The notes: a model not told the origin generated them from the letters alone. 64,000 bases of DNA from Candidatus Thorarchaeota archaeon (GCA_963726195.1 CAVSBO010000004.1:224001-288000), one strand, 5' to 3'. Shown: positions 32,394 through 52,999, numbered from the stretch's first letter. Made by a program: numbers and translations.

Positions 32394-32783
32394 ATGTCTG
32401 GCCATTTGGATTCACGCAAAGAGAAGGAATTGATTGAGCTTCTGATGGGCCTCACTGATGTCGCAGACTTGGATGCAATAGCTGTTGTTAGCAAGCAGGG
32501 AGTGAAGCTGGCCTACTTCGCTACCGAAGAGTCAGATGTCGATCCTGACCTGATGGCCGCTGTTAGTGCAGCATTGCTGGCAACTGGAGACATGGCAGCA
32601 GACAAACTGGCGCTTGATGTTCTCTATGAGGTTATTGTGCACGGAAAGCAGGGCTTCGTTGTGCTTTCAAATGCGGGAGACTTTCTCCTGATGGGGTCTG
32701 CGAAGGACCTGACCTCAATGGGACTTGCAGTCCAACAAATGAGGAAGTACGCAAAGGAAGTGGGCGAGCTACTCAAGAAGTAG
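32394..32783 (+). CDS. Roadblock/LC7 domain protein
   Basis: IAVVSKQG, DLMAAVSAALL, EVIVHGKQGFVV, MGLA. Confidence 0.88.
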   Translation: MSGHLDSRKEKELIELLMGLTDVADLDAIAVVSKQGVKLAYFATEESDVDPDLMAAVSAALLATGDMAADKLALDVLYEVIVHGKQGFVVLSNAGDFLLMGSAKDLTSMGLAVQQMRKYAKEVGELLKK

Positions 32784-37842: not shown

Positions 37843-40336
37843 TCATGGTCTCTTGGTTTTCACCCGGAGTGTGAGGATGGAATGAGGACCCACCGGCAGC
37901 CGGAATGTATTGGTGTGGAAACCTATTTCGCCCATGTCTCTTTCACACAAGTCCGTGAGATTCACGGATTCGAGCTCATAGAAGAACTTGAGCGTGGCAA
38001 TGCCTTCGGTGCCACCCATTTCATAGAGTCTTAGCACGAATTCTCCGGGATTCCCGGTCGGCTTGAGGCAGGAAAGAGCCAAGTCCATGCCCTGTATCTC
38101 GAGAAATGATGCCTCGTGAGGCAGGCTGCCGCCAGTGCTCTCTTGACAACATGCCATCAGGGGCAGGCGATGTTCAGCGGAGCTCCTCCATACCTTGGCT
38201 TTGTCCCACTTTCCTCGATGAGGAATAATAGAGTAGTGGAAGATGTGTGTCCCAATCTCGCGTGCAGTCTCGGTTTCTATTATCTCATCATCCTTTCCGC
38301 GGGAGAGGTAGTTTACGCTTCTGAGAAGAGTTGCTGAGAGCACGCCATCCGTGAATTCATAATCGTGGAGCCCGATTGCTGAGAAGCAAATTCCAAGGTC
38401 TGGTCCGGCACAGTCCACCCAATCAAGTGCGTGAAAGAGACCACCTTTGTTGCCTGCTTGGGAGGACCCGCTCCGAGGTATGACAAGCCTCTCCTCAGCA
38501 GCAAACTGCGACCCAACGACGACGCTGTTCGTGTAGACATTCAATGGGAAACTCAAGCGCACTCGCCTTTCTTGTCCCTTGAACTCCAATTCGGTCTCAA
38601 AGTCGACTCGGCGTACACCCTCATAGACGGAAATGCGTTGTCTACGAGTGCATCCATCGAAGTCGCCTGAGATTTCTGCGGTGGCCCGAACAGGTCCGGT
38701 TTCAACAATCTGTATCTTGGAAACAGTACGCAGGGACGTCACTTGGGAGTCCTGAAGCGATCGATTCGAAGGAGAGAATTCGTACAGGTCTCCTACGTCC
38801 GTTTCAATCGTGATGTAGTTCCCGCGTTCTCTAAGGAGCTCGTTTTGGCTCGCCTTGTCAAAGAACCTGAAGATGGCGCCGCTGAATTCATCGAACTCAA
38901 GAATGAAATTGCTGGACTCAATCCAGTTCCTCCCAGTTCTTATTGAGGACGCAAATTCAGGAGCCTTCTCGACTGGGACCAGCGAGTAGACTCTATGGCT
39001 TAGTGGCGGCATTCCCGAGGCGACAAAAGCCAGATTCACAAGGGTCGAATCCTCACTTTTCTTTAGAACCTGAAATGGAATACTGCGACCGTCAGGACCT
39101 CGTAGGCTCGAATGCGCCCGAAATATGGTTGGTCAAGTCGACTTCGATTTGTACAAAGTCGTCCCGCGACCATGGCAATGGATTGGTGACTACGAAACTC
39201 AGATTCTCGGACGGTCTCGCGACCTGCGAAACCATTCGGGCAACTGTCTCTTCTAGTAGTTGCTCCGCTTGGGCAACTGCCTGTTGATACCTCTTGATAG
39301 CCTGCTTGAATGGTTCGTCTGCAAGGGCACCCCTGATGATGTTGTGATCTTGGTTGAAAAGCAGAATCCTCCACAGGTTCTCCAGTTGCGGTATTTTCTC
39401 ACGTTCATCGCCAAAGCTCATGTATAGTTCAATGAGGTGAACAAGACTCTCCAGCCTGCGATTCAGAATCTTGAGCTTGGTTCTGGCACTGAGTCCCCCT
39501 TGGTGCATCGAGGCAAACCGGTCGCTGTAAAGACCTCCCTCAATCACTGGCATTCTGGCCTGTACTGTCTTGGTCTTGTCAGTGAACTCGCGTGGAGTCA
39601 CTATTGCCATCCGCATGTCAGGAAAGGTTGAGTTCCACTTGCTGGCGATATCGGCGAGATGAGGTAGGGGCGGGACAAGTTCTCCGCCAGTTGGTATGAG
39701 CAAGTTGTTCGAAACCGCGTGGCTGCTTATTGCTTCAATAATCTTCAGAATCTTGGTGAATGCATCTCTCTGATTCTCAGACAACCACGCAGCACAGTCA
39801 TATCCCTGAGAGAGCCACGTTGCGATTACTTGGCTGCCGTCAGGTGCTTTCCAGATGAACTCGCTCGGCGAGTCATAACCCATGCCCCGCCAGAAGTAGT
39901 ACGAATCCATTCCGCACAATCTAAGGATTTGCGGCATCTGAGAGGGATGTCCAGCCGAATCGATTGCCCACCCTGTACGAACGTCTATCCCAAATTCCTT
40001 TCTGAAGAACTGTGTGCCGTACAGATACTGGCGTACTATCGACTCCCCGTCGGGCAAGACAAAGTCGGGCATTACATAGGTTCCGCCGACAATCTCGACA
40101 CGTCCCTCTAATACACGCTGATGCAGTGTGTCCCAGTAATTCGGAAACAGCTTCTTGAAGCCCTCTAGCAACGTGACTTGGTCCAAACAGAACCTGTGGG
40201 TAGGATTGACTTCGAGGAAATCTAGTACGCTCTTTACATTCCAAGAGCCAATGCTCACATAGTGTTCGTATGTTCGAGACCTGGAATTATCGAAGTGCAA
40301 AAACGGGCACATGTTGAGGATCCAACGGTCGGTCAT
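37843..40336 (-). CDS. GH38 alpha-mannosidase-like protein (split at ~39040-39100)
   Basis: HFD, GRVEIVGG..PD..LPDGES.VRQ, GWAIDSAGH..QMPQI, EFIWKAPDGS, QDHN; C-terminal ETGPVRA, TLLRS, LRLYE. Confidence 0.85.
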
Positions 40337-40649
40337 GCAAGTCACATCTGTCGGCAGGCCATCGTCTGAGTCTCTAGTTAGGAGTCCTGTCACCTTTATG
40401 AGCATTGCCAGTGGTCAAGGGGCGGGCTATTGATGTGACACAGGACCCTTCAATTGACCCACCGATTGGTCTGTTGGGCAAAGAGAGCGGAAAGATCAAC
40501 GAGCAACAGGACCTGGAAGAGACTTGTGCCAACGCTTCACGTGATGATATCCTGGTCGGAGAACGCAGAGGGGTCGTGTCTTCTCTCTTGAGAACTTGCG
40601 TCCTGAAATGCCGAGTGTGCACTACCCCAACTGCAGGTTGTCCGAACAC

Positions 40650-44554: not shown

Positions 44555-44719
44555 CGCAATCGAGGCACTAGCTGCCTAGACTGAACGGATTCGCGAACTG
44601 AAAACAGGCCTGGGTAAGTTCTCTCCATGAGTGACGTGGCCTGTGCATGTGAAACTCATATAAGCGACTCCCATTGCATAAGACTGAGGCGAGCGAAATG
44701 GAATCCGAAAGAAGAGAAC

Positions 44720-45178
44720 GTGCTTCGGCAATTCGACAGTATGAGAACAAGGATTGAAGGACTTCTCGACAACCTTGAGAAAGCGAGTCAATCCTCAAGT
44801 GATTTGGACGAGATCACGAAGGAGCGCGACGAGCTGAAAGCTCAGATGATGCAGATAACCGGAAAGCTTGAGCGGGTCTCGGAACTCTATAGAGAAGCCT
44901 CCACTGAAAAGGATAAGCTCAAAGAAAAAGTGGACGTAAGCGGCCTGCTTGCGATTTACATAACGCTCATTGAGACAGTCTTTGGAGGAAAGCCCCACGC
45001 CCGTGTCCTCTACACTTTACATAACACGAAGAAGGCAATCACTAGGAAGAACCTGGAGTCAAGCACGGGTATTATGTCAACCGCAATCATGAAAGCTATT
45101 CATGATCTCCGGAACTCCAATCTGGTGTCATACGACGAAGACACGCAAGAAGTGAAGCTAATCAAGGACATCTTCTAG
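44720..45178 (+). CDS. Coiled coil plus C-terminal winged-helix protein (start uncertain)
   Basis: Heptads, then HARVLYTLH..ITRKNL..AIMKAIHDL..LVSYD..VKL. Confidence 0.7.
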   Translation: MLRQFDSMRTRIEGLLDNLEKASQSSSDLDEITKERDELKAQMMQITGKLERVSELYREASTEKDKLKEKVDVSGLLAIYITLIETVFGGKPHARVLYTLHNTKKAITRKNLESSTGIMSTAIMKAIHDLRNSNLVSYDEDTQEVKLIKDIF

Positions 45179-45226
45179 TGGCAACGCGCTCTCCAGCGCG
45201 CAGCCTGAACAAAGAGTGGGCAACAC

Positions 45227-46231
45227 ATGCATTCGAGAATCACTTACAGCCCCGTTCTGAGAAAGTACGTGAAAGCGCACAACTTGGAAGAGAAGCTATA
45301 TTCGATAGTAGATCTACTGGGCACTGATGCTCAAGATGTCATAAGATGGGCGGAGTCGGAAGCCAGCCGCAGGAATCGGGAAGGGTCCGCCCCGGAGAAT
45401 TCGGATCTTGGAAAAGTCATGTTCGAGCTCATAGGGAATGAAGCCGCGGTCAGACTGATTCAGTACAACGAATCGAGAGGTAGATTGACAACTCGGAGTG
45501 AAGTGAGTCTTAGGACAGGACACAGGGCTGACATGCCCTACCTGTATCAGGAGGCGGGATTGAGGCATCCTCAGGAGGCTAGGAATCTCCGCCATAATTT
45601 GTTTCATCGGTCCTTCACCGCCTTGGTCTCACGTATATTTCCAGATGTGACCACAAGTGTGCCTGTCACAGGTGAAGGTTTGACGCCTGACCTCATGGTG
45701 AACCACAGGAATCCTGACTGGACGCTCTGTGTCGAATACAAGGGTTATCGCTCCATGACGCTTCTGAGTGAAGCAGAAATCATCAAGGCCATGCGATATC
45801 AGCAGGCCTACGGTTCTGCATGGCTTGTCACAACAACCATGAAGACAGTTCAGTCTCTCTACGGCAGCAAACTCTCGTCCGAGAAGCTAATTGAGGGCGG
45901 CATTGTCAGACTTGAGCGAATCACGAAGCGGAAGACCTTCACCGACGAACAACGGGAAATCAGGGGCATTGCAAAGAAGGGTCTTTTGCAGCTCGAGAAA
46001 GTGCGCGGCATGAGCCTGCGGTGCGATCTAGTATCTGCAGATGACATGATTGCGTCCTGTCGTCAAGGAACTCCAATCAAGGCCTTGGCGATAACTACTG
46101 GCCTTGAACTGGCTGAGATGCTTGACAAAGAAGGCCTAGGAGAGCAGGCCACACAGATCAGAAGAGTGATGAAGGTGCCAACGGACCTTCTACATAGCGA
46201 CTCGGTGACGTCACTTCGGCTCTTGAGCTGA
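45227..46231 (+). CDS. PD-(D/E)xK nuclease-fold protein
   Basis: LTPDLMV...LCVEYKG...AMRY..AWLVTT. Confidence 0.65.
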   Translation: MHSRITYSPVLRKYVKAHNLEEKLYSIVDLLGTDAQDVIRWAESEASRRNREGSAPENSDLGKVMFELIGNEAAVRLIQYNESRGRLTTRSEVSLRTGHRADMPYLYQEAGLRHPQEARNLRHNLFHRSFTALVSRIFPDVTTSVPVTGEGLTPDLMVNHRNPDWTLCVEYKGYRSMTLLSEAEIIKAMRYQQAYGSAWLVTTTMKTVQSLYGSKLSSEKLIEGGIVRLERITKRKTFTDEQREIRGIAKKGLLQLEKVRGMSLRCDLVSADDMIASCRQGTPIKALAITTGLELAEMLDKEGLGEQATQIRRVMKVPTDLLHSDSVTSLRLLS

Positions 46232-46293
46232 GTTCACATATCGTTGCCATCGACCATGCCTGACGAACCATTTGCGCCAAGCTTTATCAGTCT

Positions 46294-46749
46294 GTGGCAG
46301 TCTCAGCTCGCACGTTAACTCTGAAGAAGCTGTTCGTCTTGCCGGAAGCCAGGCATTCAAGACAATTGAGCGCGAAGAGCGTGCCCTCTCATCTTAGGGA
46401 GCTGCTGAAGGACCTATGCACCACATCACCCGTGCTTGGAGCAGCCATCTTCACTGTTGAGGGACTACCTTTTGTTAGCTACTTCAACACGGGCACTGAA
46501 GACGTCACTGTTGCTGCCATGGTTGCCAGTCTTCATTCCACAAGTGTTCAGATGCTCAACGAACTACGACAAGGTTCCCTAAAGTCAATAATCATAGAAG
46601 GCACAGGCGGAAAGACAGTCGTAGTGTCTGTTCCACCTGGGTATGTCTTGGCAGTTATCGCTCCTGATATCGCGCGGACGGGACTTGTGTTCGGCGATGC
46701 TAAACGTGTCGCAAGAGAATGCACCAGACTAATCGAGCAAGTTGGTTGA
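46294..46749 (+). CDS. Roadblock/LC7 domain protein
   Basis: GAAIFTVEGLP, VAAMVASL, ELRQG.LKSIIIEG..G, GLVF. Confidence 0.88.
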   Translation: MAVSARTLTLKKLFVLPEARHSRQLSAKSVPSHLRELLKDLCTTSPVLGAAIFTVEGLPFVSYFNTGTEDVTVAAMVASLHSTSVQMLNELRQGSLKSIIIEGTGGKTVVVSVPPGYVLAVIAPDIARTGLVFGDAKRVARECTRLIEQVG

Positions 46750-46760
46750 GCGAGTCTCGA

Positions 46761-47595
46761 ATGACAGAATCCTATCCGTTTCAGCACCACCCTTGTTGGT
46801 CGGAGAGTAGAACAGAGCTTTGGGAAAGAATCCACCTTCCGGTAGCGAGAGGCTGTAATGTCAAGTGTGCGTTTTGCGACGGCCTCTCTGCAGTCTCTTG
46901 TCACGTGCAGCGTCCCGGCACTGCAAGTCGAACGATGCCAGCTGAGCGTGCAGTCGAAGTTGCGAAGAGAGAATTGAGTCGGCGAGCAAATCTTCATATA
47001 GTCGCAGTCGCGGGTCCCGGTGAACCTTTGGCTAATGCTGCCACTTTCGAGGTTATGAACAAGCTGAGTCGACAGCTGTCCCAAAGTTCACTTCTGTCTG
47101 AGCACGAACGGAGTCCTTCTGGCAGATAGGGTGAACAAGCTTGTCCGTCTGGGCATTGAGAGCCTGAGCGTCTCCATGAGTACAAGTGAGCCTGCAACTG
47201 CCGCAACAATCTATGAATGGGCCGAACTCTGTGGGACGCGGGTTACTGGAATCGGCATGGGCAAGAGAATCGTGGAGATGCAGCTAGCCGGAATCAGACA
47301 AGCAACAGATGCGGGAATTCACGTGAAGATCAATTCGGTGCTTATCCCCGAAGTGAACGATGAAGACATTGCCACGTTGGCCGAGGACGCGGCCTTCGCG
47401 GGGGCTGAACTTCAGAACATTATTCCACTAGTGCCTTGTGGGACGATGTCGACGTATAGACCGCCAAGTTGCGAGGAACTAGAACAAGCAAGAGCAGGGG
47501 CTCGCAAGCATATCAAGCAGTTCTGCAGTTGCCGTCAGTGCAGGGCAGACGTGGTTGGCATTCCCGGTGCTGACACTTTGATCTGGAGTGGTTAG
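46761..47595 (+). CDS. NifB-like radical SAM protein (indel at ~47085)
   Basis: HPC, RIHLPVARGCNVKCAFC, VAGPGEPLAN, KINSVLIP.VND, QNIIPL.P, CRQCRAD.VG. Confidence 0.82.
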
Positions 47596-48410
47596 AGAAC
47601 CACCAAGCATCCAACCTCGACGAGTTTGTTGACCAGAAACCAAATTGCGTTTCTGTCGTACTGCAGAGAATCCATAATGTCCTTGACGCGTCTCGTTCCA
47701 TCACAGACTTTCAGTATATCGTCCACTGGCTCTCCATATTCTCCTCTCAGTTTCTGCAGTGCTGATGGACTGCAGTCTCGCTTGCCGAGCCTATCCGAAT
47801 CTACAAGCTTCTTCTTGAATTCAATCCATCCATACTTCTGCAGAATCGAGACGAGGGCCACAACTTGGGTTTCAGGCAGGTCAATGAGATTCATAATCTC
47901 GCCAATCGTGCGCTTCCCATTGATGTATCCTTCAAGCCTCTCGAGCTGACTGTCAATCACGCCGACCCGGAACGGTATGTGCTGACCTTCCTTTCGACGT
48001 AGTGGAACCAGGTTGACATCGGGTTCGCTATAGGGAAACTCAGTAAGTATGGTCCAAGCAAACTCCCTGAATCGCCTTATGTCTCCTTCGAAGGCCCTGA
48101 TCTTCTCGCCATGTTCCTCTTCGAGGAGCCTGAGAATCTTGACAAGGCGTTCACGATAGGGGGCTTCGTCAGGTACAGGGTCCACGACCAATAGGACGAG
48201 AACAGTCTCTCCCACTTCAATGAGAATATCATAGGCGGCTTTGCGGATTGTTCTAATGGGTGTCTTCGCGAAGATGATGACCGCCGACACAAACCCTGCT
48301 ATCAAGTCGGGATCAACTGTCATCTCTGCATACGGCACGCTCAAGATTGACTCGCCACCTTCAAGGCGAATCAAGGAAACGTACCGGACTTTGGACACAT
48401 CCAGCGGCAT
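47592..48410 (-). CDS. Longin plus tandem winged-helix protein (NPRL2-like), paralogue A
   Basis: VRYVSLIRLEGGESI..VDPDLIAGFVSAV longin; YINGKRTIGEI..LQKYGWI and CDGTRRVKDI..LVEVGCL wHTH repeats. Confidence 0.72.
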   Translation of the reverse strand: MPLDVSKVRYVSLIRLEGGESILSVPYAEMTVDPDLIAGFVSAVIIFAKTPIRTIRKAAYDILIEVGETVLVLLVVDPVPDEAPYRERLVKILRLLEEEHGEKIRAFEGDIRRFREFAWTILTEFPYSEPDVNLVPLRRKEGQHIPFRVGVIDSQLERLEGYINGKRTIGEIMNLIDLPETQVVALVSILQKYGWIEFKKKLVDSDRLGKRDCSPSALQKLRGEYGEPVDDILKVCDGTRRVKDIMDSLQYDRNAIWFLVNKLVEVGCLVVL

Positions 48411-48561
48411 TCTTATCAACACCCGTTACTAACGCGGACACTGCCGGGAGGTGGCGGGAGAGCCGACGCTCTGTTGCAGTTGATATAAGGCTTCTCCTGT
48501 GTAGCAGAGCGGCGCTCTACGCCCAGAGAGAGACACGAAGTCTGAGTAATGCTGTCCATAA

Positions 48562-49406
48562 TCAGGCCTCAGTGAATCCAAGGACGCCTGCGTCCACAAG
48601 ACTCTTGGCCACGGTCAGCAACACTTCCATGCTGTAGGCAAGGAAAGCTGCCACATCCTTCAAGCTCTTGGTCCCATCGCAGAGCTCCACAAACCGGTTT
48701 ATTTGTTCGCCATATACTCCTACGAGAAACTTGTGAGGGTCGCTGAGCTTAACGAGGCAAGTTTCCTCTGTTATCTTTCTGCCAAAGGTTGTCCAGCCGA
48801 AATGATCGAGAATCGATATGATGGCCACCATGTCTTCTTGAGATAGGCCGGTCGATTGCATTATCCCATTTATCGTTCTCTTTCCGTTGATGAAGCTCAC
48901 AACGGTCTGGATCTCTTGTCAGCCTCGCCGACGCTCCAAGGTATGGGGGCGTACCCCTCGAATGCTGGGTCCGATTTCTTGGACAGTCTGGGGACTAGCT
49001 CCCATTCAAACCTGCTGTATGGATAGGCTCCAAGTATGTGCAAAGCAAACTCTCTGAAAGGTCTGACATCCCCTTTCCAACTCTCGAGCTGAACTCCATA
49101 CTCAGTCTCAAAGCTGTTGATGATGCTCTTCAAGACATCTCTGTAGGGGTCCTCGTCATCAACCCTGTCCAAGATGAGCAGCCCGACCATCTGTTTCCCC
49201 TCTTCGATTAGTACCACGTATCCCTCCTTCACAAACCTCCTCAATTGCCTATTCTCGAAAATGACCACTGCGAGCACGAAACTGGCGACCAAATCAGGGT
49301 CTACGCTCATCTCACGATAGGTGATGCCTATGACGGGTTCGCCACCCTCTTTTCGCACGAGCGAGATGTAGCGTACGTGTTCTTCGTAGCTGTTGGTCGC
49401 ACTCAT
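48562..49406 (-). CDS. Longin plus tandem winged-helix protein (NPRL2-like), paralogue B (indel at ~48912)
   Basis: VRYISLVRKEGGEP..VDPDLVASFVLAV; FINGKRTINGI..LDHFGW; CDGTKSLKDV..LVDAGVL; aligns end to end with paralogue A. Confidence 0.72.
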
Positions 49407-49448
49407 CTTACGTTTTCATTCACAATCTCAGATAATAAGATTGCATGT

Positions 49449-50342
49449 CTAGAGGAAGTCAAGCAAACCGGTCTGGGCAATCATGGTTGCTTCTGGATCC
49501 AAGGAAAGCGTGTAACCGATGAGCTGCTTGATGTCTGTGACTATGAAGGCGGACCCAGTCCTAGTGACCAACAGCGAGCCCTTGACACCCACCACATCTC
49601 CCACAAGATGCTGGGCATTTCTTGAAGCCGCAGAGAACTGCCATGGTCTAGGCGGCGTATCGATTTCGGATAGGCCATAATAAGGAGAGAGATCCTCCAA
49701 GACGAAGCTGGATTCAGAAGAGAGTATGTTGTTGGACTCAAGGAACGAACGTGCAAGGTTGCGGGCTGTTGACAAATCCAGAGAGTGAGTAAACGTCGAA
49801 GCCTTTCTTCCTCTGCGCACCTGCTTGGTTATTCCAGTCAAGTGTCCTATGGATTCCTCAGTCTTTCTTGCGCTCATTCCTCCGTCAGCTGTGGAAATGA
49901 CCCCCGCAAAGTCAGCGCCTTGTTCAAGCCAACGAGTCTTGACTCGACCTAGCGTTGACACGCCAACCTTCAAAGTCTGGTCCTTGAAGACTGCAAGATA
50001 CACTGCATATTGGGAATTCTGACATCTGCTCTTGCGGGTGTCAGAAGCACTACAGATTGCGCCGGTGCAACGAATGCAAGGATCAAGTTGATCCATTGCG
50101 GAACATGGGCCACACCGAAGCCCGTTCATTGGCACTGTTCTGCGTTCTGGACAACGGATGTTGTTGCCTGTTGAATCACGACTGCCAATGCACATCCTAG
50201 GCCCTTCAATCGTCCATGACAGGTGGCTGCCGGAGCGAAGAGAAGTGAACGTGGTGATCTCCCCACTATCGTCCCATGAGGCAATTCCGGGGACGAATTC
50301 GTTCTTGACTGGCGAACGCCATACAATGTCGATGACGAGCAT
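49449..50342 (-). CDS. DUF2797-family Zn-binding protein
   Basis: RMCIG..CP..CGPC..CIRC, VYLAVF..LKVG..RWLEQGA, GVKGSLL. Confidence 0.75.
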   Translation of the reverse strand: MLVIDIVWRSPVKNEFVPGIASWDDSGEITTFTSLRSGSHLSWTIEGPRMCIGSRDSTGNNIRCPERRTVPMNGLRCGPCSAMDQLDPCIRCTGAICSASDTRKSRCQNSQYAVYLAVFKDQTLKVGVSTLGRVKTRWLEQGADFAGVISTADGGMSARKTEESIGHLTGITKQVRRGRKASTFTHSLDLSTARNLARSFLESNNILSSESSFVLEDLSPYYGLSEIDTPPRPWQFSAASRNAQHLVGDVVGVKGSLLVTRTGSAFIVTDIKQLIGYTLSLDPEATMIAQTGLLDFL

Positions 50343-50353
50343 CCTGACAGGCC

Positions 50354-51397
50354 TCAAAACCTTAGAAGGCCAGTACCCTGTCCCATCCATTTCGCGCCAG
50401 AGATATTCAGGTCGTGGCTGCATTTTGGACAGTGTCCGTCGTCTCTTAGGTTGTTCTTCTTCATGTACACAGACCAGCGTTCGACTGCCTTGTAGCCACA
50501 GCTCGGACAGAACGTGTTCTCATAATCATGTCCGGGAATATTGCCTGAGTAGACGAACACGAGGCCTGCATCCTTTGCGACCTTGATATGACGTTCCAGA
50601 GTTGATGCTGGTGTGCTCGGGAGACGAGTCATCTTGTACATCGGGCTGAAGGCTGTGAAGTGTATTGGCGTCAGGGGTCCGAGATTCTCGACCACCCAGC
50701 TTGCCATTGTTCTGGTGTCCTCTTCATGATCCCCGATTTCAGGAATGATGAGGTTCGTGATTTCTATGCACACTCCCTTTTCTTTCAAGTGCGCCAGAGC
50801 ATCGTATATTGGCTCGACCTTCGGGACCGACATGTACGTCTTGTAGAACTCCTTGTTGCCGCTGCCCTTGAAGTCCACGGTGGCCGCGTCCAAGTACGGT
50901 GACATGTAGTCGATTGCCTCGGGGGTCATGTACCCGTTTGTCACGAAAGTGTTGTACATTCCTTCTTCATGAGCTATCTTTGCTGTATCATGGGCAAGCT
51001 CCATGAAGATAGTGGGCTCAGTATATGTGTAGCTTAGGCCTGAACAGTCATAGTGTTTGGCCAAACTCACTATGTCTGCGGGTTCAAGGCTTTCTCCAAC
51101 TGGTGTTTCTCTCTGGGATGAATGATAGTTCAGGCAGAACTGGCAACGGAAATTGCAGGAAGATGTGCTGATAGAGAAGGTCCTAGAGCCGGGGGCAAAG
51201 TGAAACAGCGGTTTCTTCTCAATGGGGTCAGCTGCCATTCCGTCGACGAGACCATACACAATGCTATACAAAACGCCGTTTCTTAATGACCGAACGCGGC
51301 AGAAACCGCTTTCACCCTCTTGAATAACGCAACGCCGAGCACATAGATTGCATCGGACTCCATTCTTCAGCTTCGAATACAGAACTGCCTCTTTCAT
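50354..51397 (-). CDS. AmmeMemoRadiSam-system radical SAM enzyme (PFL-activating-enzyme-like)
   Basis: CNLCARRC...DPIEKKPLFHF.PG..CNFRCQFC.N, TYTEP, VTNGY, YSGNIPG..TFCPSC. Confidence 0.88.
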   Translation of the reverse strand: MKEAVLYSKLKNGVRCNLCARRCVIQEGESGFCRVRSLRNGVLYSIVYGLVDGMAADPIEKKPLFHFAPGSRTFSISTSSCNFRCQFCLNYHSSQRETPVGESLEPADIVSLAKHYDCSGLSYTYTEPTIFMELAHDTAKIAHEEGMYNTFVTNGYMTPEAIDYMSPYLDAATVDFKGSGNKEFYKTYMSVPKVEPIYDALAHLKEKGVCIEITNLIIPEIGDHEEDTRTMASWVVENLGPLTPIHFTAFSPMYKMTRLPSTPASTLERHIKVAKDAGLVFVYSGNIPGHDYENTFCPSCGYKAVERWSVYMKKNNLRDDGHCPKCSHDLNISGAKWMGQGTGLLRF

Positions 51398-51541
51398 ATC
51401 GACAGCCCGGTTGGGGGCTCGTCTTATGCTTCTTGTGGTGTGAAAGTGTCAAGATTTCGTCCCACCGAGCACTGATGAACGATGGACTGCTGAGGCCGCA
51501 CATCCGGCAGCCGAAGATGACGTCTCGAAAGCTCGCTGGCA

Positions 51542-52999
51542 CTACACTTCTCCTTTTACTGGCTTCTTCAATGACAAGACCAAGGTCTTGCCGTCAACCA
51601 GCTTGGCAATACCGAGTCTCTGGAAGTCTTCAGCCCACTGCATGACGACAGCAGGCGAAACCCCCAAAGACCTTGCAATCTCTCTGACCACAAGCTGCTG
51701 GTTATCTTCCAGCATTAGAAACGCCCGGGTCTTTTCTGTGGATTGCATGAGTCCCAGATAGCCATCGAGTCTCTTCTGGACGTAGGAAAGCGTCTCCAAT
51801 GCCTCCGAATGGTCTGAGTTCAATCTCTGAAGAGATGCGGATGTGCGCTCGAGTTCAGTCTTCACTCTGTCGAGTTCTCGCATCTTGTCGCCTGACTCAT
51901 AGGCTCTTATTCTCGTCTCGAGATCATCTATCTCTGCTAGGCGTTCACGGGACTGGCTCATTCCGTTCGAAAGCTCCTCAATCCGGGTAAGGGCATCCTG
52001 CAGGTTAAGTTCAGTCCTTGCAAGGTCAGAGGCATACTGCTTTGCCTTTCCCTCCAATTCGTCATTTCTCTTGTTAGATTCGTCGAGCTTGCCTTCAAGA
52101 ACCTCCTGAGAAGCCTCGAGGGCCCGGATGTTCTGCCTGAGCTCTACCATGGTTGCCGAGTCAGTCATTGGGCCAGAACGTAGGCGTACTACGCTATCCT
52201 CTAGATCGTCACTTCGAGCCTTTGTCTCTGACAGTTCCTGCTGCAGTGCATAGACTTCGCTTTCCCGGTTCTTTACTTTCTGCTCGGAGAGATCAAGATC
52301 CCTCTGTAGTTCCTCGATTTGCCGCTGCATGGTCTTAATGTCTTCAGCGACCTCTTTGGGAACCTCTGGGCGCGGCTTCATGGTCAGTTCCTTCGCTAGA
52401 AACTCAACCTCGGTCGTGGTTCTCTGTGTCAGGTCGTCCAGACTCGCTTTCAGGTTGGTCAATTCCTCTGTAGCCAGTTTCGCTGACCCCTTCAAGCCCT
52501 CAGTCAGCTCACGTAGTTTCTCAAGTATGGGCGAGGCCATGTCGGCCGTGAGCGTTGATTCTATCTTACCAAACGACTCGTCGACTATCTGCCTCACTTC
52601 ATGGTCGACGTACGAAGACTGCAAGTTCGTTTTTGCTCCCTGCTTGCTTCTGGTCACGATGTTCTCTTTCAGGGAGACCAGATTGCCTTTGAGACCCACT
52701 AGGAATGATAGCACAACGGGGACCAGGTCTCTCTCTACATGGTCAATGACTCCATCGATTGTTGTCATGTCACGCTCGATTAGGTGAAGGCTATCCTGAA
52801 CTCGTTCTGCGCTCTTCTCAATCTCTATCTGTCTTCGTACCTGTTCTGCCGACTCAATCTTGAAGATATCTTTTGACAGCCTTCCTGAATCAATCAGCTT
52901 GCGTTTCATGCTTTCGTCGACGCCCATCTCAACCAAGAGCTTGTCAATCATCTCGCCTTCGTCGCTGGGAGGAGCCTCTTTTTTCGGAGTCTTTGACAT
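51542..52999 (-). CDS. Long coiled-coil protein with C-terminal winged helix
   Basis: Extended heptads; VREIARSLGVSPAVVMQWAEDFQRLGIAKL. Confidence 0.75.
   Translation of the reverse strand: MSKTPKKEAPPSDEGEMIDKLLVEMGVDESMKRKLIDSGRLSKDIFKIESAEQVRRQIEIEKSAERVQDSLHLIERDMTTIDGVIDHVERDLVPVVLSFLVGLKGNLVSLKENIVTRSKQGAKTNLQSSYVDHEVRQIVDESFGKIESTLTADMASPILEKLRELTEGLKGSAKLATEELTNLKASLDDLTQRTTTEVEFLAKELTMKPRPEVPKEVAEDIKTMQRQIEELQRDLDLSEQKVKNRESEVYALQQELSETKARSDDLEDSVVRLRSGPMTDSATMVELRQNIRALEASQEVLEGKLDESNKRNDELEGKAKQYASDLARTELNLQDALTRIEELSNGMSQSRERLAEIDDLETRIRAYESGDKMRELDRVKTELERTSASLQRLNSDHSEALETLSYVQKRLDGYLGLMQSTEKTRAFLMLEDNQQLVVREIARSLGVSPAVVMQWAEDFQRLGIAKLVDGKTLVLSLKKPVKGEV

Follow-up and report, generated by a model that had tools for sequence, protein, structure and literature searches.

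The DNA analyzed here, a 64,000-nucleotide stretch from a Candidatus Thorarchaeota archaeon that we call the window, contains two adjacent genes on the minus strand, A and B, whose products are paralogs of about 275 residues (Table 1). Gene A is intact and probably starts at the conserved ATG at 48410, while gene B is read in two parts. The product of A shares 68 of 156 aligned residues (44%, E = 7e-40) with the N-terminal part of B, and BLAST aligns it with the C-terminal part at 36% identity over 108 residues (E = 1e-18), so that, judged by these alignments, the similarity of the two is far above chance. Two co-oriented paralogs of this size had been described in a sequence-only reading of the window, and the motifs it listed (VRY.SL.R.EGGE, VDPDL, GD.R.FREFA, LVP, INGKRTI, and CDGT..KD) are all found in the translations of both A and B. 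Both proteins are acidic (pI of 5.3 for A and 4.9 for B), as are their C-terminal tails, with net charges of -2.7 and -6.2, which speaks against DNA binding.

Table 1. Coordinates of the gene pair and of adjoining features, counted from the first nucleotide of the window
Feature	Coordinates	Strand	Description
Gene A, longin + two winged-helix protein (NPRL2-like)	47592..48422	-	Intact 276-aa ORF
Gene B, paralog of A	48562..49406	-	Two ORFs in the window, one-base frame offset
B, N-terminal part	48897-49406	-	169-aa ORF
B, C-terminal part	48562-48900	-	112-aa ORF
B-A spacer	48423..48561	-	151 nt from B stop to the conserved ATG of A at 48410
Frameshift site in B	48911..48913		One base short relative to near-identical public contigs, plus a difference at 48913
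Roadblock/LC7 gene	46294..46749	+	Converges on the pair; Pfam Robl_LC7, E = 5.4e-12
DUF2797 gene	49449..50423	-	Directly upstream of B; Pfam DUF2797, E = 7.4e-15

The interruption of B was traced with public contigs from two sequencing runs labelled as peat metagenome (X1 and X2) that are at least 99% alike to the window. Each contains one additional T, behind 48911 in the X1 contig and behind 48913 in the X2 contig, and both have T instead of C at 48913, so the indel that the sequence-only reading had suspected at about 48912 was placed exactly. The X1 contig covers 46600-49498 as a single piece, and runs X3 and X5 yielded short pieces over the stretch, with 48911-48913 outside their coverage. 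Read with the X1 letters, B becomes a single frame of 281 aa that is identical at 245 of 281 residues to the intact B of a genome of the same genus (G022); this ortholog is 293 aa long (L006:477-1358) and has 86 to 88% identity to the two parts of B. Because the X1 and X2 contigs are free of the frameshift, the break in B is a property of this assembly or strain and not of the gene, with the reservation that both runs may come from the very sample behind the window and are therefore not independent proof. The same two contigs have one base fewer at 47066, inside the neighboring radical SAM gene, which is split in the window and forms a single frame of 291 aa with the X1/X2 letters.

NPRL2 and NPRL3 (Npr2 and Npr3 in yeast) are the paralogous longin subunits of GATOR1/SEACIT, the GAP for RagA/Gtr1, and form the catalytic core of the eukaryotic switch that shuts off Rag GTPases under amino acid scarcity. 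An AlphaFold2 model of A, built on an alignment of 41 A and B orthologs, was obtained with a pLDDT of 88.5 and a pTM of 0.79. It contains a longin domain at residues 12-128, with the strand/helix order bb-a-bbb-a-a, followed by two winged helices at residues 138-276. When the whole model was submitted to Foldseek, the 10 best matches were GATOR1/SEACIT chains (E = 1.6e-7 to 5e-5 over 325 to 356 alignment columns). The TM-scores of these matches were 0.30 to 0.40, with an rmsd of 10 to 13 Å, and such low scores indicate that the relative orientation of the domains differs from that in the GATOR1/SEACIT chains. The tail was also folded alone (residues 136-276, pLDDT of 96.1), and all of its 12 best matches were GATOR1/SEACIT chains (E = 6.8e-5 to 0.028, TM-score of ≤0.70), namely, NPRL2 and yeast Npr2, followed by FAM91A1 and then by generic winged helices. 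The closest match to the tail in this unbiased search of 48,161 solved chains is therefore the tail of NPRL2/Npr2, and only NPRL2, Npr2, and FAM91A1 (the last over 115 residues) matched both winged helices together. For the longin domain, no GATOR1 chain is among the 50 entries listed; the domain resembles other longins as closely as it does NPRL2, and we therefore consider the longin part to be generic. According to the accessible text of Levine et al. (2013, PMC3747258), NPRL2/3 consist of a longin domain and at least two winged helix-turn-helix (HTH) repeats, and the pair has both the N-terminal longin domain and the C-terminal two-winged-helix arrangement, as the sequence-only reading had proposed for the two proteins. 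In its modeled structure, A is a good NPRL2/3 look-alike and is well conserved, within a family that has already been published.

Sequence searches were carried out against several collections. A Pfam search of A and B (E ≤ 1) gave no match to the longin, NPR2, or NPR3 families; the matches obtained were to winged-helix families and all fell below the curated cut-offs. DUF742 (PF05331, conservon CvnC) scored 12.8 bits with A and 11.7 bits with the C-terminal part of B against a cut-off of 27 bits, and 26.6 bits with a homolog from genome G091; this similarity reflects the shared winged helix only. When NPR2 (PF06218) and NPR3 (PF03666) were searched against the whole genome at E ≤ 10, neither gave a match at this locus, and NPR3 gave none anywhere in the genome. 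IML1 (PF12257, DEPDC5/Iml1) had no match anywhere in the genome, which is 88.9% complete, at E ≤ 1. By sequence, then, A and B fall outside the NPRL2/NPRL3 families at the curated cut-offs. NCBIfam has no name for either protein, and a search of the ESM Atlas returned only Asgard clusters without a name. A profile search of the PDB from alignment A1 found nothing significant. The A4 profile, with 57 rows and widened by other Asgard relatives, matched human NPRL2 (a chain of 380 residues) at E = 0.007 and Npr2 at E = 0.21. The NPRL2 match lies in the first winged helix, where it runs collinear with the match obtained by structure, and it is no better than that to MarR regulators (E = 0.002). 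Homology of the A/B tail to NPRL2 is plausible.

The most conserved residues of A and B sit in loops. The loop before strand 2, placed by the strand limits of the model rather than by superposition, contains E-G-G-E in all 41 A and B sequences, and the residue that follows is S in A (22/22) and P in B (18/19). The surface arginines 13, 19, 90, 116, and 119 are invariant in A and B, and R57 and R60 are invariant in A only. Other conserved loop residues are G71 and the motif G-D-x-R-x-x-R, which includes R116 and R119, and A has a specific arginine-rich loop, TPIRTIRK. The catalytic arginine finger of NPRL2 is Arg78, which reviews place in a loop, and the invariant arginines of A and B are candidates for its counterpart. 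The loop differences between A and B are fixed, as would be expected for the two halves of an asymmetric dimer. A "GP" motif in the loop before longin strand 2 is a feature of GAP-active longins, a class made up of NPRL2, FLCN, SMCR8, and C9orf72 (PMC12290439). The GP motif as such is absent from the 41 sequences, A having GGES and B having GGEP at this position.

Relatives of A number 289 in 90% clusters. Among the best 120 of these 289, most are without a name, those with a source name are all called "hypothetical protein," and the named rows are from Thorarchaeota or Sifarchaeia. An A-family match is present in 86 of the 87 genomes of the class, with A orthologs 56 to 90% identical. A B-type match, 37 to 44% identical to A among the matches listed, is the immediate upstream neighbor of the A-type match, on one contig and strand, in at least about 66 of the 86 other class genomes, a figure counted by hand among the matches listed and hence a lower bound. 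The tandem arrangement, on which the sequence-only reading depended, is thus conserved across the class. The spacing between the two genes was measured at 30 of 34 loci, the other 4 being dropped since the motif pattern missed them. The B stop and the A start are 10 nt apart or less at 13 of the 30 loci, with overlap at 4 of these, and 59 to 151 nt apart at the remaining 17; in the window, the distance is 151 nt. Weaker relatives of A are widespread in the phylum (354 of 400 genomes at E ≤ 1e-3), and full-length relatives outside the class match more weakly, at E = 1e-21 to 1e-35.

A quick maximum-likelihood tree of 53 rows, none of them eukaryotic, contains a single A clade and a single B clade, each with an SH-aLRT of 99. 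The tree resolves these two clades but not the placement of the other Asgard relatives or of the copy from G001, a genome of the sister order that has one copy only. The single copies of genus g15 nest inside the A clade, and no B ortholog was found in any of the three g15 genomes, which are 96 to 99% complete, indicating that B was lost in this genus. The absence of B from g15 and the single copy of G001 mean that an obligate heterodimer, as the sequence-only reading had it, is not supported. The duplication is most simply the lineage's own, since A and B share about 40% of their residues with one another but only a marginal likeness with NPRL2, the sister order is single copy, and both clades occur in this family only. 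We read the two genes as a tandem duplication in the Asgard "NPRL2-like" protein family. The related proposal that the pair represents a proto-GATOR1 core is not supported either, because Pfam NPR3 and IML1/DEPDC5 are not found in the genome, NPR2 is not found at the locus, and the duplication looks to be the lineage's own. An "obligate proto-GATOR1 heterodimer" is a reading that exceeds the evidence.

Gene neighborhoods were compared at 18 loci picked for long contigs or as special cases. The conserved block in the family is composed of two converging gene strings. One consists of a coiled-coil winged-helix gene, a 334-aa gene of unknown function, the Roadblock gene, and a NifB-like radical SAM gene; the other, in the opposite direction, consists of a coiled-coil HTH gene, an AmmeMemoRadiSam enzyme gene, the DUF2797 gene, B, and A. 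The Roadblock gene is present at all 18 loci, G001 included, and the NifB-like radical SAM gene is present at 17, being absent in G001, which retains seven genes of the block. Gene B and the DUF2797 gene are each present at 15 loci, with DUF2797 missing at two g15 loci that also have no B (L050 and L051) and at one locus that does have B (L044). Synteny within the family extends over about 20 kb around the pair, so the conservation of the Roadblock gene may be plain synteny, and the block alone is no proof of a functional link. Roadblock genes are not rare here: the genome has 14 matches, and the window accounts for two. The Roadblock gene beside the pair may be functionally linked to it.

As the sequence-only reading had stated, the window contains no GTPase gene: the genome has 20 matches to Pfam Arf (E ≤ 1e-5) and 7 to Pfam Gtr1_RagA (E ≤ 1e-3), and contig C4, to which the window belongs, has none of these matches. 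Contig C17 encodes a 650-aa protein in which a G domain of the Arf/Roc/Ras type (Arf, E = 1.7e-18; Gtr1_RagA, E = 2.5e-4) precedes a module that matches residues 17-276 of A (E = 7e-23). Its upstream neighbor encodes a 572-aa paralog in which the G-domain region has no P-loop. The same fusion of GTPase and module occurs in G001, G014, and the g15 genomes and, among the representatives, in P0134 and P0140. The fusion of an Arf/Rag-like G domain to an A/B-homologous module suggests that this module works with small GTPases in cis. In the 53-row tree, the A and B clades are separate from the GTPase-fused modules. The family's N domain is found attached to other proteins as well, namely, KaiC-type ATPases, Ig-repeat proteins, and HTH proteins. 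Of four loci sampled outside the class, a GTPase lies beside the homolog at one and at none of the others (G203, G092, and G211). The one is that of the G091 homolog (303 aa), the best outside the class, which belongs to an overlapping, codirectional cluster and follows an Arf-like GTPase by two genes; comparison of A1 by hhalign with three unnamed neighbors of this homolog found no relation.

The fold and the paralogy are established, as are the class-wide conservation of the pair and the intactness of B in near-identical strains. We favor, with moderate confidence, the explanation that the A/B pair is a longin-dimer platform or regulator for small GTPases. The longin domains would pair side by side, as in other longin/roadblock proteins, A with B in genomes that have both and A with A in those without B, and the winged-helix tails would supply a second contact by analogy with NPRL2-NPRL3. 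We infer that such a dimer could dock or regulate one of the at least 20 Arf/Rag/Rab-like small GTPases of the genome, whether as a GAP, a GEF, or a scaffold. The likeliest clients would be the C17 Arf/Rag-like GTPase and its dead-GTPase neighbor, both of which have the paralogous module at the C terminus. A narrower form, which we think quite unlikely, would make the A:B longin dimer a dedicated regulator (a predicted GAP or GEF) of the Thorarchaeal pair of module-bearing Arf/Rag-like GTPase and pseudo-GTPase, with a catalytic residue contributed by TPIRTIRK or by R116/R119. If true, this arrangement would amount to a GATOR1-Rag circuit in minimal prokaryotic form, without DEPDC5.

Other explanations have to be weighed against a platform or regulator for GTPases. 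The two proteins could be subfunctionalized paralogs, each homodimeric or paired with the longin module of C17, that do not bind one another, the tandem being a trace of the duplication. The g15 genomes with A only and the single copy of G001 indicate that a single protein suffices, and the wider spacings, that of the window among them, would leave room for A and B to have promoters of their own. However, both copies have been retained side by side across most genera of the family, the B stop and A start often overlap or abut, and the fixed loop differences are those of asymmetric dimer halves, and we therefore regard independent paralogs as possible but unlikely. The derivation of the NPRL2-NPRL3 heterodimer directly from this pair, with A and B each orthologous to one subunit and the pair acting as a Rag GAP, would account for the shared layout, the paralogous pair, the closest fold matches being to NPRL2/Npr2, and the presence of Arf/Rag-like GTPases in the genome. 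It is extremely improbable given that the identity between A and B is about 40% whereas NPRL2 is barely detectable, that the sister order is single copy and the A and B clades appear confined to the family in a tree without eukaryotic rows, and that IML1/DEPDC5 was not found in the genome and A has no GP motif.

The winged helices also invite readings in which GTPases play no part. A and B could be transcription regulators with a longin domain that senses a ligand or partner. None of the matches to Pfam winged-helix families reaches its curated cut-off, however, both proteins are acidic over their whole length and in their tails, and both winged helices together are matched only by NPRL2, Npr2, and FAM91A1. 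The NPRL2 tail is described as a protein contact in the accessible part of one report (PMC8534245). We consider transcriptional regulation to be improbable. Alternatively, A and B could be adaptors of the neighboring radical SAM and DUF2797 genes, for example, as peptide- or protein-presenting winged helices like the RiPP recognition element. Matches to that element extend over a single winged helix and have lower scores than NPRL2, 3 of the 18 loci have no DUF2797 and G001 has no NifB-like radical SAM gene, synteny holds for the entire region in any case, and no precursor peptide gene was seen, all of which make an adaptor role very improbable. A platform or regulator for small GTPases remains the explanation that we prefer.

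Human NPRL2 and NPRL3 have 380 and 569 aa. Compared with them, A and B are shorter (276 to 293 aa) and have neither a Pfam NPR2/NPR3 match nor the GP motif as such. The domain orientation in the A model differs from theirs (TM-score of 0.3 to 0.4), and the A/B duplication is probably independent of theirs. The third subunit of GATOR1/SEACIT, DEPDC5/Iml1, was not found in the 88.9% complete genome that encodes A and B. MglB, the roadblock dimers of Ragulator (LAMTOR), Mon1-Ccz1, Fuzzy-Inturned, and TRAPP are all without the NPRL2-type double winged-helix tail. The origin of longin-based GAPs is an open question (PMC12290439), and a compact archaeal protein that has the NPRL2 layout and occurs in almost all genomes of an Asgard class lends itself readily to biochemical work: two soluble chains of about 280 residues are involved, and candidate GTPases are available as a defined list from the same genome.

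Fusions of Asgard Rag/Arf-like GTPases with longin or roadblock domains are described in the accessible text of Tran et al. (2024, PMC10933270) and Liu et al. (2020). The C17 proteins are alike in joining an Arf/Rag-like G domain to an A/B-homologous module, and A and B differ in having no G domain. An Asgard NPRL2-like family with a longin domain and an NPRL2-type C-terminal domain, found in most Thor genomes and few others, is reported in the available portion of Liu et al. (bioRxiv 10.1101/2020.10.19.343400). A and B have the same layout and a comparable distribution, their family being found in 86 of the 87 class genomes, and the correspondence was made by this description rather than by asCOG identifier. 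As far as its accessible text goes, the literature on GATOR1 or NPRL2-like proteins in Asgard archaea contained nothing fitting beyond Liu et al. The sequence-only reading had singled out the tandem pair as the notable part; the family itself is already in print, and the available portion of Liu et al. makes no mention of the tandem A/B pair, the loss of B in g15, the Roadblock neighbor, or the GTPase-fused paralogs. Since the NPRL2 resemblance had been published, the value of the present comparison lies in its details: the pair is conserved and yet not obligatory, the break in B belongs to the assembly or strain and not to the gene, and the same module is fused to or clustered with Arf/Rag-like GTPases.

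Seven to nine genes of window positions 44627 to 52999 are kept across two orders, as judged by comparison with locus L049 of the sister-order genome G001. Outside this block, the 20-kb G001 locus showed no match to the other window genes that served as references. The shared block consists of two converging strings of genes, one with a coiled-coil winged-helix gene, a 334-aa unknown, and Roadblock, and the other with a coiled-coil HTH gene, an AmmeMemoRadiSam enzyme gene, DUF2797, and the longin protein. Both loci of genus g15, which carry the NPRL2-like longin and double winged-helix gene (A) without its paralogue (B), lack DUF2797, as does locus L044, where B is present. The window contains a second Roadblock/LC7 gene, which is listed with the other features below.

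Positions of features discussed in the text
Feature	Location	Strand	Remark
Second Roadblock/LC7 gene of the window	window 32394-32783	+	Pfam Robl_LC7, E 8.3e-9 at C4:256436-256693
GH38 alpha-mannosidase, two ORFs	window 37843-40405	-	
NifB-like radical SAM gene	window 46719-47595	+	adjoins A; broken near 47066
Tandem of two related proteins	G000 contig C17, L065:8332-12097	-	
Five overlapping codirectional genes	L066:7591-11358	-	genome G091, another Asgard family

The NifB-like radical SAM gene is present in the window as two ORFs of 136 aa and 154 aa. Contigs from three public sequencing runs (X1, X2, and X3) have one base fewer at 47066 than the window does, and removal of this base restores a single frame of 291 aa. 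The G010 orthologue matches the NifB model with an E value of 1e-64. Because the breaks in the radical SAM gene and in B represent two indels inside 2 kb, the window assembly appears to be error-prone. The N and middle domains of the GH38 alpha-mannosidase are encoded by an ORF of 437 aa and its C domains by another of 398 aa. In G062, the N-domain part stands at the start of a single ORF that is at least 690 aa long. A third assembly indel may account for the split in the window.

Relatives of A and B also occur together with GTPases. The window's own genome encodes, on contig C17, a 650-aa protein in which an active Arf/Rag-like G domain is followed by a longin domain and two winged helices, a module homologous with A and B; the protein's 572-aa neighbor is a paralogue that lacks the P-loop. 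The G091 cluster encodes proteins reported as 351, 276, 180, 303, and 157 aa. The 303-aa protein is the homologue of A, composed of longin, HTH_47, and a DUF742-like winged helix, and the 276-aa protein is an Arf-like GTPase with an N-terminal extension; the 351-aa, 180-aa, and 157-aa proteins are unknowns.
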